Below the pieces are notes generated by a model. The model saw only the letters and a list, made by a program, of their open reading frames with translations, searched no databases and had not been told where the DNA came from. Shown here piece by piece: positions 2,907 to 5,996 of a stretch of DNA of 5,996 nt. This DNA is from a virus (taxonomy: Duplodnaviria > Heunggongvirae > Uroviricota > Caudoviricetes). The position numbers were made by a program, and so were the translations under genes. The stretch is taken from positions 1 to 5,996 of the IMG/VR virus record IMGVR_UViG_2713896729_000002. One strand, given 5' to 3'. Position 1 is the first letter of the stretch; the number at the start of each line of letters is the position of its first letter.

Positions 2907-4322
2907 ATGAAAATCAAAACTCGCTTCGCGCCAAGCCCAACAGGCTATCTGCACGTTGGCGGCGCGCGTACTGCTCTTTACTCCTGGCTTTTTGCACGTA
3001 ACCACGGCGGTGAGTTCGTGCTGCGTATTGAAGACACCGATCTTGAGCGTTCCACGCCGGAAGCTATCGAAGCCATTATGGATGGCATGAACTGGCTGAG
3101 CCTGGAGTGGGATGAAGGTCCGTACTACCAGACCAAACGTTTTGATCGCTACAACGCGGTGATCGATCAGATGCTGGAAGAGGGCACTGCTTATAAATGC
3201 TATTGCTCTAAAGAGCGCCTGGAAGCGCTGCGCGAAGAGCAAATGGCGAAAGGTGAGAAGCCGCGTTATGACGGTCGCTGCCGCCACAGCCATGAGCATC
3301 ATGCTGATGATGAACCGTGTGTTGTACGTTTTGCTAACCCGCAGGAAGGTTCTGTTGTTTTTGACGATCAGATCCGTGGTCCGATCGAGTTCAGCAACCA
3401 GGAACTGGACGATCTTATTATCCGCCGTACCGATGGTTCCCCAACCTATAACTTCTGTGTGGTTGTCGATGACTGGGATATGGAAATCACCCACGTTATC
3501 CGTGGCGAAGACCATATCAACAACACGCCACGCCAGATCAACATTCTTAAGGCCCTGAAAGCGCCGGTGCCGGTTTACGCGCACGTTTCTATGATCAATG
3601 GCGATGACGGTAAAAAACTGTCCAAACGTCACGGGGCAGTCAGCGTAATGCAGTATCGTGATGACGGTTATTTGCCAGAAGCACTGCTGAACTATCTGGT
3701 GCGTCTGGGCTGGTCCCACGGCGATCAGGAAATCTTCACTCGTGAAGAGATGATCAAATACTTCACTTTGAATGCCGTCAGCAAATCTGCCAGTGCGTTC
3801 AACACCGACAAGCTGCTGTGGCTGAACCATCACTACATTAACGCGCTGCCGCCGGAGTATGTTGCTACTCACTTACAGTGGCACATTGAGCAGGAAAATA
3901 TCGATACCCGTAACGGCCCGCAGCTGGCTGATCTGGTGAAACTGCTGGGCGAACGCTGCAAGACGCTGAAAGAGATGGCACAGAGCTGCCGTTATTTCTA
4001 CGAAGATTTTGCTGAGTTCGATGCCGACGCCGCGAAAAAACATCTGCGTCCGGTAGCGCGTCAGCCGCTGGAAGTGGTTCGTGACAAACTGGCCGCGATT
4101 ACTGACTGGACCGCTGAAAACGTTCATCACGCTATTCAGGCGACGGCGGATGAGCTGGAAGTGGGTATGGGTAAAGTTGGTATGCCGCTGCGTGTCGCCG
4201 TAACCGGTGCGGGGCAGTCTCCAGCACTGGATGTTACCGTTCACGCAATTGGTAAGACCCGCAGTATCGAGCGTATCAACAAAGCGCTGGATTTTATTGC
4301 TGAACGCGAAAATCAGCAGTAA
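2907..4322 (+). CDS. gltX: Glutamyl-tRNA synthetase (class I aminoacyl-tRNA synthetase), 471 aa
   Basis: ORF 2907..4322. It has the class I HIGH-type motif ([19 protein letters not shown]), a KMSKS-type motif (KLSKR), and the Zn-binding Cys/His cluster (CYC...CRH). Length and sequence match E. coli GltX as I recall it. Confidence 0.97.
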
Positions 4323-4373: not shown

Positions 4374-4658
4374 TTATGCTGATTCGTCAATATCGAGACG
4401 GGCGAGGAAATTGCGAATTCCTTCACGTGACAAAAATTGCGCGACTTTTTCCTGCTCAATGTCTGTCATATTATCTATCGCGTTGATGATTTGTCGATAC
4501 GCCGGGGCGCGTGCTCCAGGAGCGTATTCAGCAATTCTCTCTTCAGCTTCCATCAACATTGGTGTGTTATGGAAGGCTGGCGTGTTCTGAATAAACTCGC
4601 AAACTTGCGTATCGACCAGAATAAGTCTGGCACGACCGCCTTTCACGCCGGGAAATTT
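4374..4658 (-). pseudogene. yfeD: yfeD-like small DNA-binding protein (DUF1323), C-terminal ~94 codons; reading frame interrupted at 4658/4659 by an IS insertion
   Basis: Minus-strand frame is open from the stop at 4374-4376 up to 4658 (...KFPGVKGGRARLILVDTQVCEF...DIDESA). The track ORF 4374..4646 starts at GTG, which is an internal Val of the native protein as I recall it (...GWKTEKFPGVKGG...). Convergent placement next to gltX matches E. coli synteny. The N-terminal part continues on the far side of the IS (5985-5996 encodes WKTE on the minus strand, in frame). Confidence 0.6.
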
Positions 4659-4664
4659 AATGAG

Positions 4665-4676
4665 ATGGTCACTCCC
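4665..4676. repeat. Left subterminal inverted repeat of the IS (ATGGTCACTCCC)
   Basis: Exact reverse complement of 5970-5981. Confidence 0.7.
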
Positions 4677-4724
4677 TCCTTCCCGGTACTATGCTGAGGA
4701 CAGGCTTTCATTCGGAGAACTATC

Positions 4725-5729
4725 ATGGAAAACATTGCGCTCATTGGTATCGATCTGGGTAAAAACTCTTTCCATATTCATTGCCAGGATCGTCGCGGGA
4801 AGGCTGTTTACCGTAAAAAATTTACCCGGCCAAAGTTGATCGAATTTTTGGCGACATGCCCCGCTACAACCATCGCAATGGAAGCCTGTGGCGGTTCTCA
4901 CTTTATGGCACGCAAGTTGGAAGAGTTGGGGCATTCCCCAAAGCTGATATCACCACAATTTGTCCGCCCGTTCGTTAAAAGCAATAAAAACGACTTTGTC
5001 GACGCCGAAGCTATTTGTGAAGCTGCATCGCGTCCGTCTATGCGTTTTGTGCAGCCCAGAACGGAATCTCAGCAGGCAATGCGGGCTCTGCATCGTGTCC
5101 GTGAATCCCTGGTTCAGGATAAGGTAAAAACAACCAATCAAATGCATGCTTTTCTGCTGGAATTTGGCATTAGCGTTCCCCGAGGAGCTGCCGTTATTAG
5201 CCGACTGAGTACCATTCTTGAGGATAATAGTTTGCCTCTTTACCTCAGCCAGTTATTGCTGAAATTACAACAGCATTATCACTATCTTGTTGAGCAGATT
5301 AAAGATTTGGAATCCCAGTTGAAACGAAAGTTGGACGAAGATGAGGTTGGACAGCGCTTGCTGAGCATTCCCTGCGTCGGAACACTGACAGCGAGTACTA
5401 TTTCAACTGAGATTGGCGACGGGAAGCAGTACGCCAGCAGCCGTGACTTTGCGGCGGCAACAGGGCTTGTACCTCGGCAGTACAGCACGGGAGGTAGGAC
5501 GACATTGCTGGGAATTAGTAAGCGAGGTAATAAAAAGATCCGAACTTTGTTGGTTCAATGTGCCAGGGTATTCATACAAAAACTGGAACACCAGTCTGGC
5601 AAATTGGCCGATTGGGTCAGGGATTTACTGTGCCGGAAAAGCAACTTTGTCGTCACTTGTGCTCTGGCAAACAAGCTGGCCAGAATAGCCTGGGCCCTAA
5701 CGGCACGACAGCAAACTTATGTAGCATAA
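4725..5729 (+). CDS. IS110-family transposase / DEDD recombinase, 334 aa
   Basis: ORF 4725..5729 with GGAGA ribosome-binding site 7 nt upstream. N-terminal MENIALIGIDLGKNSF has the conserved RuvC-like catalytic Asp (DEDD_Tnp_IS110 type). The C-terminal region has the Transposase_20-type signature (IPCVGTLTASTISTEIGDGKQYASSRDFAAATGLVPRQYSTGG). Confidence 0.9.
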   Translation: MENIALIGIDLGKNSFHIHCQDRRGKAVYRKKFTRPKLIEFLATCPATTIAMEACGGSHFMARKLEELGHSPKLISPQFVRPFVKSNKNDFVDAEAICEAASRPSMRFVQPRTESQQAMRALHRVRESLVQDKVKTTNQMHAFLLEFGISVPRGAAVISRLSTILEDNSLPLYLSQLLLKLQQHYHYLVEQIKDLESQLKRKLDEDEVGQRLLSIPCVGTLTASTISTEIGDGKQYASSRDFAAATGLVPRQYSTGGRTTLLGISKRGNKKIRTLLVQCARVFIQKLEHQSGKLADWVRDLLCRKSNFVVTCALANKLARIAWALTARQQTYVA

Positions 5730-5969
5730 CGGCAGAAATACACCGGTTTAAAGAATTACTGATCTGGTTTTGCGAATACTGATATTGATGATACTAACGG
5801 CCCACCGGCCTGTTGAGGAACCTGTAAAACGGAAAGGCTCATTGAAGCCGTATATTTTCTGGAGGTTCATCAGGCGCGGAACTCATCAAGGCGCGGGAAT
5901 AAAATCCCATTCAGACGCCGGATAGATTCAAGCAAGCCAACTTGTCGTCAAAATCGGTGTTGCAAAAAC
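5730..5969 (+). ncRNA. Putative IS-encoded guide RNA (seekRNA / bridge-RNA-like) in the non-coding right end of the IS; boundaries unknown
   Basis: 240 bp between the transposase stop and the right inverted repeat has no ORF of 60 aa or more that lies wholly inside it. It contains AAAACGGAAA (5826-5835), the reverse complement of target flank TTTCCGTTTT, followed 2 nt later by CTCATT (5838-5843), the reverse complement of the IS left terminal hexamer AATGAG. It also has an imperfect direct repeat, CATCAGGCGCGGAA (5869-5882) and CATCAAGGCGCGGGAA (5885-5900). IS110/IS1111 elements are known to encode such RNAs in their long non-coding end. Confidence 0.35.
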
Positions 5970-5981
5970 GGGAGTGACCAT
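5970..5981. repeat. Right subterminal inverted repeat of the IS (GGGAGTGACCAT)
   Basis: Exact reverse complement of 4665-4676, 3 bp from the inferred right end. Confidence 0.7.
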
Positions 5982-5984
5982 AGA

Positions 5985-5996
5985 TTCCGTTTTCCA
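5985..5996 (-). pseudogene. yfeD: yfeD, 5'-proximal part resuming after the IS (continues beyond the window)
   Basis: Minus-strand codons at 5985-5996 read W-K-T-E, which joins in frame to KFPGVKGG at 4658 and downstream once 4659-5984 is removed. This matches the recalled native YfeD sequence ...REKGWKTEKFPGVKGGRARL... Confidence 0.5.

Follow-up and report, generated by a model that had tools for sequence, protein, structure and literature searches.

Organization of the Locus

The window, by which is meant the entire 5,996-nucleotide stretch of DNA that was analyzed, closes with a yfeD gene divided by an insertion sequence. The 3' part of the gene (codons 37-130 and the stop codon; Pfam YfeC-like, 1.2e-38) occupies positions 4374-4658 on the minus strand and is identical to yfeD of strain E2865, and codons 33-36 (WKTE) occupy the final 12 bp of the window (5985-5996) on the same strand. 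These 12 bases and the T that precedes them form TTCCGTTTT, the right half of the IS4321 target. Uninterrupted yfeD, as found in strain E2865, reads GGGAAATTT followed directly by TTCCGTTTTCCA, which is exactly the left flank and then the right flank of the window once positions 4659-5984 are taken out. Comparison with this allele confirms three proposals of the initial annotation, which was made from the sequence of the window alone: that removal of 4659-5984 rejoins yfeD, that the junctions lack a target-site duplication (excision regenerates the empty site without duplicated bases), and that the insertion splits off the N-terminal ~36 codons, yfeD being disrupted after codon 36. The description of the insertion as in frame is without consequence, as the reading frame of the N-terminal fragment ends at a stop codon 18 codons inside the element.

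By the convention of its family the element comprises 1327 bp on the plus strand (4658-5984; TAATGAG...CATAGA); the 1326 bp initially delineated (4659-5984) hold as the net insertion at this site but not as the conventional length. T4658 is at the same time the first base of the element and a base of yfeD. The left extension TAATGAG (4658-4664), which is invariant in nearly all relatives, lies outside the left subterminal inverted repeat ATGGTCACTCCC (4665-4676), and the right subterminal inverted repeat GGGAGTGACCAT (5970-5981) is followed by the extension AGA (5982-5984). The two 12-nt repeats are perfect, as first described (100% complementary, within the 7-17 bp required of IS1111 elements), and they covary among relatives. 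Their placement 6 and 3 bp inside the ends was accurate at the right; at the left the distance becomes 7 bp when T4658 is counted, following the left-extension rule of the IS1111 family (PMC11187229). So counted, extensions of 7 and 3 bp are common to all relatives with a recognizable left end, except L072 and L080.

The transposase gene (4725-5729, plus strand) encodes a protein of 334 aa with a DEDD RuvC-like domain and a Tnp domain. Its reading frame begins 66 bp past position 4659, leaving a left end of 66-67 bp as against a non-coding tail of 255 bp (5730-5984), an arrangement that had been recognized at the outset. Residues 7-146 match Pfam DEDD_Tnp_IS110 (PF01548; E = 1.3e-20), the protein also matches Transposase_20 (PF02371; E = 4.4e-20), and the NCBIfam model NF033542, "IS110 family RNA-guided transposase," scores 341 bits against a cut-off of 140. 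Structural relatives in the PDB are the transposases of IS621 and ISCro4; the sequence GLVPRQYSTG (residues 247-256), the TG variant of the GL-P----S/T-G motif, is aligned with the corresponding stretch of the ISCro4 transposase, and IS621 matches the same query region.

Identity of the Element

Several features support assignment of the element to the IS1111 group of the IS110 family, in agreement with the initial proposal of an IS1111 rather than a DDE-type element: the transposase is of the DEDD type, the 12-bp repeats are subterminal, non-coding sequence is short at the left end and long at the right, and yfeD is interrupted past codon 36 with no target duplication. A DDE-type insertion sequence is ruled out: Pfam finds no DDE domain, the repeats are subterminal, and a target-site duplication is lacking. 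A defective or miniature element is likewise ruled out, given that the transposase frame is intact and equals WP_000427623.1 by way of an identical copy in strain H2.

Within the group, the element is an already known one and not new. Hundreds of copies in E. coli, IS4321 by annotation, are 100% identical to it over 1326 bp, and under the ISfinder-style limit for a single insertion sequence (>95% DNA identity) it matches the type copies of plasmid R751, at 99.7% (13405-14729) and 97.1% nucleotide identity. The R751 IS4321, an ISfinder entry, was reportedly the subject of work by Partridge and Hall in 2003. It shares with the window copy the TAATGAG and AGA extensions, the junction sequences, the transposase length of 334 aa and, save for one A-to-G change in the left arm, the 12-bp subterminal repeats; it differs in lying within a Tn21-family terminal repeat rather than a chromosomal gene, and in a net insertion of 1327 rather than 1326 bp. 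IS5075 has the same organization, target and guide blocks (copy L034) and also occurs in yfeD (L083, L093), but a copy annotated as IS5075 family differs from the window element by 86 of 1326 nucleotides and 7 amino acids, and at 93.5% identity, below the usual 95% limit, the window element is ruled out as IS5075. The initial annotation had put forward IS4321 and IS5075 only as comparators, and the element proved to be IS4321 itself; on the guide-RNA-coding tail, the mimicry of a Tn21 repeat by yfeD and the commonness of the insertion in public genomes it was silent. We are highly confident that positions 4658/4659-5984 are an intact IS4321 with a seekRNA-coding tail, residing in a Tn21-repeat-like site of yfeD.

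A Predicted Guide RNA in the 3' Tail

In IS1111 elements a seekRNA has been described in which a match to the top strand of the target lies 5' of a match to the bottom strand, and a target logo for IS4321 has been published (PMC11187229). The tail of the window element (5730-5984, plus strand) is predicted to encode such a seekRNA, or bridge RNA, on the basis of an alignment (A1) of non-coding sequences from 16 relatives, a consensus fold, compensatory pairs and a fold z-score of -3.76. The alignment is conserved throughout except for two hypervariable guide blocks. Pairing extends to 96.8% of cells in the consensus fold and to 34-46% in slid controls, and compensatory changes are seen at 8 of the pairs. 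The guide blocks match the flanks of their own element, the summed match of cognate pairs being 129 against 88 +/- 6.6 when permuted; the sum of 129 was reached in 0 of 100,000 permutations. At the level of sequence, these comparisons show an RNA scaffold whose guides change along with the targets in relatives. Matches are poor between guides and flanks in the distant relatives L057, L072 and L080, which for L072 and L080 may stem from their atypical left ends. An Rfam scan of the whole window (E <= 1) returned no match in 5730-5984. Elsewhere in the window it returned rdlD/sok only.

The predicted scaffold extends from 5768 to 5967 and is closed by an invariant outer stem (UUUUGCGAA, 5768-5776, with GUGUUGCAAAA, 5957-5967). 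Inside it, a target-binding loop (5819-5867) is bounded by the stem AACCU (5819-5823)/AGGUU (5863-5867) and contains two guide blocks, with a conserved capping hairpin (5836-5849) between them. The T-guide AAAACGGAAA (5826-5835) complements TTTCCGTTTT of the target top strand, matching yfeD at 10/10 positions, and would pair with the right half-target on that strand; it was also recovered independently, as inverted repeat I5. The B-guide AUAUUUUCUG (5852-5861) has the sequence of the top strand over the left half-site and crossover, and would pair with the bottom strand there; it matches GGATATTTTCCG-type repeats at 9/10 positions, Tn21 at 8/10 and yfeD at 7/10. Judged in this way, the tail carries matches to both strands in the order typical of an IS1111 seekRNA. 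Two further segments are putative donor guides, both invariant in the alignment: GGAACUCAUC (5878-5887), whose CUCAU complements ATGAG in the left end, and GGAUAGAUU(C) (5920-5929), whose AUAGAU reproduces the right end ATAGA with a T added.

To our knowledge, the seekRNA of IS4321 has not been mapped experimentally; it is predicted, whereas the published cases, ISEc11, ISPa11, ISKpn4 and ISPst6, have mapped seekRNAs. These four elements resemble IS4321 in having a downstream non-coding region with a top-strand match 5' of the bottom-strand match, in the overlap of these matches where insertion occurs, in extending 7 bp past the left repeat and in leaving no duplication, and differ from it in their guides and targets. 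In each of them the RNA is bound by the transposase and needed for transposition (PMC11187229), and by analogy with the family and this literature the IS4321 RNA would be made and bound by its recombinase.

Presumed Circular Intermediate and Comparison with IS621

Circles of IS4321 with the junction AGATAATGAG have been observed experimentally, and promoter boxes at the circle junction have been reported (PMC5001619). The window copy carries the -35 box TTGCAA at 5960-5965 (plus strand), and the full promoter TTGCAA-N17-GATAAT is completed only with the ends joined in a circle; inside the integrated element no convincing sigma-70 promoter was found (2 sites, 1.5 expected). Transposition is presumed to proceed through the published circular intermediate, with the junction forming this promoter. 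The circle, its promoter and the order of strand exchange are ascribed to the present copy by analogy with the family and the literature.

The bridge recombinase and bridge RNA of IS621 (PMC11208160, PMC11208158, PMC13626964) offer a further comparison. Both elements have a homologous recombinase, a two-loop RNA, predicted in the case of IS4321, that reads target and donor, and a circular intermediate. They differ in that the IS621 RNA lies in the left end with the guide order reversed relative to IS4321, that IS4321 has long subterminal repeats unlike IS621, and that the transposase motif has TG where IS621 has the catalytic SG. The core dinucleotide model of IS621 (CT) fails for IS4321, whose circle junction (AGA-T-AATGAG) and targets share a single T.

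Recurrent Insertion at yfeD

Of 5426 complete E. coli genomes, 171-172 have the same junctions between yfeD and the element as the window. In this set ~172 of the ~406 chromosomal IS4321/IS5075 places fall in yfeD, the principal site at which these elements enter the E. coli chromosome. Orientation of the element in yfeD is single and fixed. No report of a yfeD hotspot in E. coli was found in the searchable literature. In other species every copy joins ATTT to AATGAG at the left and CATAGA to TTCCGTTTTC at the right, and most copies lie within Tn3-family terminal repeats. Flanks are conserved across ~50 copies, as in site-specific insertion. When 1327 bp are excised from the copies in Tn3-family repeats, the reconstructed empty repeat is found by BLAST to be present intact in >1900 plasmids; among the fetched loci no uninterrupted Tn21-type repeats were found.

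IS4321 naturally targets the 38-bp terminal repeat of Tn21/Tn3-family transposons, and yfeD attracts it because TTTCCGTTTT, following A/T-rich sequence, copies the Tn21-family terminal repeat. The stretch AAATTTTTCCGTTTTCC in yfeD, as a near copy of the Tn21/Tn3-family target, leads to repeated landing of the element and inactivation of the gene.

Two other accounts of these observations were weighed, and both are very poorly supported. The first, in which every yfeD insertion of E. coli goes back to a single ancient event and the likeness of the site to a Tn21 repeat is coincidence, gains something from the consideration that many of the 172 genomes may represent few clones and are not independent events. 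It is nevertheless hardly credible when the occupants are compared, since the insertions involve at least three IS variants (the window-type IS4321, an IS4321 variant with 38 nt different, and IS5075 with 86 nt different) in two yfeD alleles that differ at ~40 of 280 nt, with three junction forms; the complete match of the T-guide to yfeD and the presence of the yfeD motif TxCCGTTTT at other chromosomal sites (napA, fliK) also stand against it. The second account concerns the right junction in the window, which might be an assembly artefact joining to yfeD an element that really lies in a Tn3-family repeat or a collapsed repeat. The window is indeed made of joined pieces, with two N10 joins, and only 12 bp follow the element; because these 12 bp, TTCCGTTTTCCA, are common to yfeD and the start of one class of Tn3-family terminal repeat (the TTCCGTTTTCCAAGCGG type), the sequence of the window does not by itself suffice to assign the right flank to yfeD. 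That it is yfeD follows from the ~172 complete genomes in which identical left and right junctions occur together, and given in addition that the left junction is unambiguously yfeD and the 12 bp are exactly those that yfeD requires, we regard such an artefact as extremely improbable.

A One-Base Irregularity at the yfeD Junction

Insertion adds 1327 bp at Tn21 repeats, napA and fliK, while the predominant form at yfeD adds 1326 bp, one T fewer. If junctions are denoted by the number of T residues to the left and right of the element, the commonest yfeD form is 3+2 (at least 60 genomes at 100% identity, and this window), and the rarer forms of 1327 bp are 3+3 (7-8 genomes, seen for IS4321 as well as for IS5075 and on different alleles of yfeD) and 4+2 (2 genomes). 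The 3+2 form arose at least four times. It is one T short of a conservative insertion of a 1327-bp circle, and the simple model does not predict it. Conservative exchange, strand by strand and with registers that differ, would give the observed forms 3+3 and 4+2, but it yields 3+2 only with an extra trimming or repair step. A shift in the register of the B-guide is one hypothesis for the 3+2 form; simple match counts do not favor a better alternative register on yfeD as its cause, the canonical register matching 7/10, that one base to the right 6/10, and the leftward register needed for 3+2 6/10 by hand alignment.

We tentatively consider it possible that yfeD is a near-cognate target with an extra T between its half-sites, at which the guides set the left and right junctions separately and mismatched intermediates are trimmed or repaired. 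A doubtful alternative, if a conceivable one, is that the variation in T count reflects homopolymer error in long-read assemblies: the rare forms are few, and in one 4+2 genome, APEC E16002, the element itself has also lost 1 bp internally. Runs of two to four T residues are short for such errors, however, and error would have to account both for the 3+3 form with two different elements on different alleles and for the 3+2 form, in place of the expected six T residues, throughout the genomes that share it with the window. Rather unlikely is a reading in which the element is truly 1326 bp and conservative, a circle without the junction T having integrated between T3 and T4 of the T5 run of yfeD. 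Removal of 1326 bp does restore yfeD exactly, and 1.7% of IS4321/IS5075 circle junctions have extra or missing left-flank bases (Hudson et al., PMC5001619). Circles without the T are rare, yet 3+2 is the commonest form at yfeD and of repeated origin, the insert measures 1327 bp at Tn21 repeats, napA and fliK, and loss of the T would weaken the -10 box of the junction promoter.

Significance of the yfeD Insertion

For annotation, the value of the finding is small: a known mobile element, equal to database copies, has knocked out a gene of unknown function. The comparison of relatives locates both guides of the predicted IS4321 RNA. Junction variation at yfeD is a small mechanistic curiosity, but the one-base irregularity provides a cheap, testable handle on strand-cut sites in IS1111-type bridge recombinases, and the separately set junctions, if true, could map the cleavage positions of the IS1111 subgroup.

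An analogous case of target mimicry is the insertion of IS5075 in ureC of Klebsiella pneumoniae (PMC8269217). There, too, a chromosomal gene is struck repeatedly at a short stretch that mimics the Tn21 terminal repeat, and resistant lineages commonly carry the inactivating insertion; the host gene and the species are different. Copies of IS4321 that land in yfeD arrive on resistance plasmids. The yfeD insertion, which parallels the Klebsiella ureC hotspot, is a marker of past contact with Tn21-type resistance transposons.

Identity and architecture of the inserted element

The 1326-bp feature within yfeD (4659-5984) is IS4321, a known RNA-guided element of the IS1111 type whose recurrent chromosomal site imitates its natural target. 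Specifically, it shares 100% identity with many E. coli copies carrying the annotation 'IS110-like element IS4321 family transposase', and matches to it were found in 1482 of 5426 complete genomes (1912 plasmid and 406 chromosomal places). The two IS4321 copies of the type plasmid, R751, share 99.7% and 97.1% identity with the feature, while a copy annotated as IS5075 shares 93.5% (86 nucleotide and 7 amino acid differences), indicating that the element is IS4321 itself, already known, rather than a new IS1111 member.

The architecture proposed in the initial annotation was borne out: a perfect 12-bp inverted repeat, ATGGTCACTCCC (4665-4676) and GGGAGTGACCAT (5970-5981), in which the repeat finder paired every position; a 334-aa open reading frame (4725-5729) starting 66 bp past 4659; a long non-coding tail of 255 bp at the right, following the reading frame; and a DEDD transposase, matched by Pfam DEDD_Tnp_IS110 and Transposase_20. 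Additionally, the protein scores 341 bits against NCBIfam NF033542, 'IS110 family RNA-guided transposase' (cut-off 140), has only the IS621 and ISCro4 bridge recombinases as relatives of solved structure, and contains GLVPRQYSTG, the TG variant of the family motif described in PMC11187229. The original reading as an IS1111-type element of the IS110 family is thus supported, and sharpened to IS4321.

Insertion site and composition of the window

The uninterrupted yfeD of strain E2865 (locus L001), used as the empty-site reference, reads ...GCCGGGAAATTT|TTCCGTTTTCCAGCC... and corresponds exactly to the left plus right flank without 4659-5984. As had been proposed, removal of the element restores ...GWKTE|KFPGVKGG..., and the break follows codon 36, just past the helix-turn-helix; describing the insertion as in frame, by comparison, has no meaning, the N-terminal fragment of yfeD meeting a stop after 18 codons of IS sequence. 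The right-hand flank of 12 bp (TTCCGTTTTCCA, 5985-5996) equally begins one class of Tn3-family terminal repeat, so the window alone does not prove that this flank is yfeD; complete genomes do.

The window comprises three unrelated pieces, joined by N10 runs at 1610-1619 and 2639-2648, which do not adjoin one another in complete E. coli chromosomes; the window therefore stems from a draft assembly that was concatenated. The third piece begins 258 bp upstream of gltX (2907-4322, plus strand), where complete genomes (locus L002) carry tRNA-Val genes, and continues with the 3' part of yfeD (4374-4658, minus strand), the feature and its 12-base right flank. Elsewhere, lambda-like prophage genes occupy 43-1609, encoding a head-tail attachment protein (43-330), minor tail proteins Z (342-920) and U (917-1312), and tail tube protein V, whose gene is truncated by the N run so that just its beginning (1320-1609) is present. 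An Ldr/rdlD type I toxin-antitoxin unit is present in two tandem copies (1731-2064 and 2266-2599), with Ldr toxin reading frames at 1957-2064 (the one checked against Pfam Ldr_toxin) and 2492-2599, and rdlD antisense RNAs on the minus strand at 1844-1909 and 2379-2444 (Rfam, 86 and 91 bits).

Target mimicry and recurrence at yfeD

Relatives were sampled as eighty loci encoding them, one genome per species. Within this sample, every IS4321/IS5075 copy with readable flanks displays the junctions ...ATTT|AATGAG...CATAGA|TTCCGTTTTC..., with a few single-base variants. Most copies sit within ...CTTAGCGTGCTTTATT/TTCCGTTTTCTGAGACGACCCC or the variant GGATATT/TTCCGTTTTCCAAGCGGACCCC, terminal repeats of Tn21/Tn3-family transposons, and subtracting TAATGAG...CATAGA (1327 bp) rebuilds a repeat of which more than 1900 plasmids carry an intact version (at least 99% identity). 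The yfeD site reads GGGAAATTTTTCCGTTTTCC, its right half the same as this target and its left half A/T-rich. TxCCGTTT(T) is common to other chromosomal targets (napA, fliK, and sites in Serratia and Klebsiella michiganensis). Odd junctions occur in some IS4321-like copies from other genera: four T's at the left in Rouxiella silvae (L051), TTCGTTTTCC at the right, one C fewer, in Rouxiella badensis (L053), and TACCG at the right, like napA, at locus L005.

Among the 5426 complete E. coli genomes, the left yfeD junction was found in 171 and the right in 172, and the site accounts for approximately 42% of all chromosomal places of IS4321/IS5075-type elements. Occupants are the window-type IS4321, an IS4321 variant (38 nt different) and IS5075, and the occupied yfeD exists as two alleles differing at approximately 40 of 280 nt; the presence of several IS variants on two alleles indicates that insertion happened repeatedly. 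The searchable literature yielded no report mentioning yfeD together with IS4321/IS5075, and its status as an E. coli hotspot for these elements is apparently undescribed. It is analogous to the ureC::IS5075 hotspot of K. pneumoniae, attributed to likeness to the Tn21 terminal repeat (PMC8269217). On the E. coli ABWA45 chromosome (L088), IS4321 has as neighbours a gene for an IS110-like transposase of the IS5708 family and another with an EAL domain, the latter recalling a Klebsiella insertion beside an EAL-motif gene (PMC8269217).

A predicted guide RNA in the non-coding tail

Sampled relatives with 70-77% protein identity (Xenorhabdus, Photorhabdus, Yersinia, Buttiauxella and others) have quite different flanks; their TAATGAG and AGA extensions are unchanged, except at L072 and L080, where left ends are atypical, and their inverted repeats vary with both arms in step. 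Alignment A1, which spans 16 distinct non-coding regions, is strongly conserved save for two blocks, 5824-5835 (GUAAAACGGAAA) and 5850-5862 (GUAUAUUUUCUGG), flanking a near-invariant hairpin, GGCUCAUUGAAGCC. The first block is the complement of the right half-target's top strand (TTTCCGTTTT), at 10/10 positions for yfeD, a complementarity picked up blind by the repeat finder (pair I5). The second equals the top strand of the left half-target plus crossover, its ATATTTTCTG matching 9/10 on the GGATATTTTCCG repeat, 8/10 on Tn21 and 7/10 on yfeD. In six more target classes the blocks match the flanks of their own element and not those of others, with 7-10 contiguous nt in at least one guide; cognate guide/flank scores sum to 129, versus 88 +/- 6.6 when permuted, and none of 100,000 permutations scored as high. 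The arrangement is exactly that of the ISEc11, ISPa11 and ISKpn4 seekRNAs, in which a top-strand match lies 5' of a bottom-strand match, overlapping at the insertion point, as shown experimentally (PMC11187229). From these alignments, the tail is predicted to be a guide RNA.

In the consensus fold, 5768-5776 and 5957-5967 form an invariant outer stem, AACCU/AGGUU closes a target-binding loop, and a second domain contains the invariant segments GGAACUCAUC (5878-5887) and GGAUAGAUU (5920-5929). Across the fold 96.8% of cells are paired, versus 34-46% with partners slid, and in eight pairs both partners have changed; the window's tail RNA has a folding z-score of -3.76, and no Rfam family matched the tail. 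Both second-domain segments correspond to ends of the element itself (ATGAG; ATAGA plus T), as donor guides would be expected to do, and are putatively assigned this role. The base following GGAUAGAUU (A1 columns 222-231) is C in IS4321/IS5075 and the relative at L057, whose right flanks begin with TTC, and U in most relatives whose right flanks begin with TTT (exceptions L052 and L080), which may reflect reading of the integrated right junction at excision. Towards the 5' side of this region, 5757-5762 is the complement of 5970-5975 in the right inverted repeat (A1 columns 54-59 with 276-281), three pairs varying on both sides among relatives; this segment resembles a third, degenerate copy of the left-repeat core, and instead of forming an RNA helix it might guide the RNA to the subterminal repeats. 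No convincing promoter was found in the integrated copy; with the ends brought together as AGA-T-AATGAG, the published circle junction (PMC5001619), a putative promoter, TTGCAA-N17-GATAAT, would arise.

A one-base irregularity at the yfeD junction

Intact targets in Tn21-type repeats have four T's; once occupied, they show three before AATGAG...CATAGA and two after it (3+2), making the insert 1327 bp, the canonical length. In napA and fliK, a reading-frame test restored the frame solely upon removal of 1327 bp, and the net insertion is always 1327 bp across these three targets. Intact yfeD has five T's, the number its reading frame needs, and its commonest occupied form is 3+2 (4656-4658 and 5985-5986), a net 1326 bp and one T short; this form is seen in the window, in at least 60 complete genomes (100% identity) and in four or more pairings of an IS variant with a yfeD allele. 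Comparison of junction forms, including loci L002, L083, L084 and L091-L093, revealed two rarer, conservative forms with a net 1327 bp: 3+3, in 7-8 genomes with IS4321 or IS5075, and 4+2, in two related APEC genomes. The fliK target also has five T's, yet is 4+2.

Strand exchange in registers one base apart would yield 3+3 and 4+2 segregants, while the 3+2 form would additionally require the loss of a base; for an alternative guide register on yfeD, simple match counts gave no clear preference. Some of the rare forms could be homopolymer errors, since a genome with 4+2 also carries a 1-bp deletion inside the IS. The one-base irregularity at this junction could inform the position at which IS1111-type recombinases cut.
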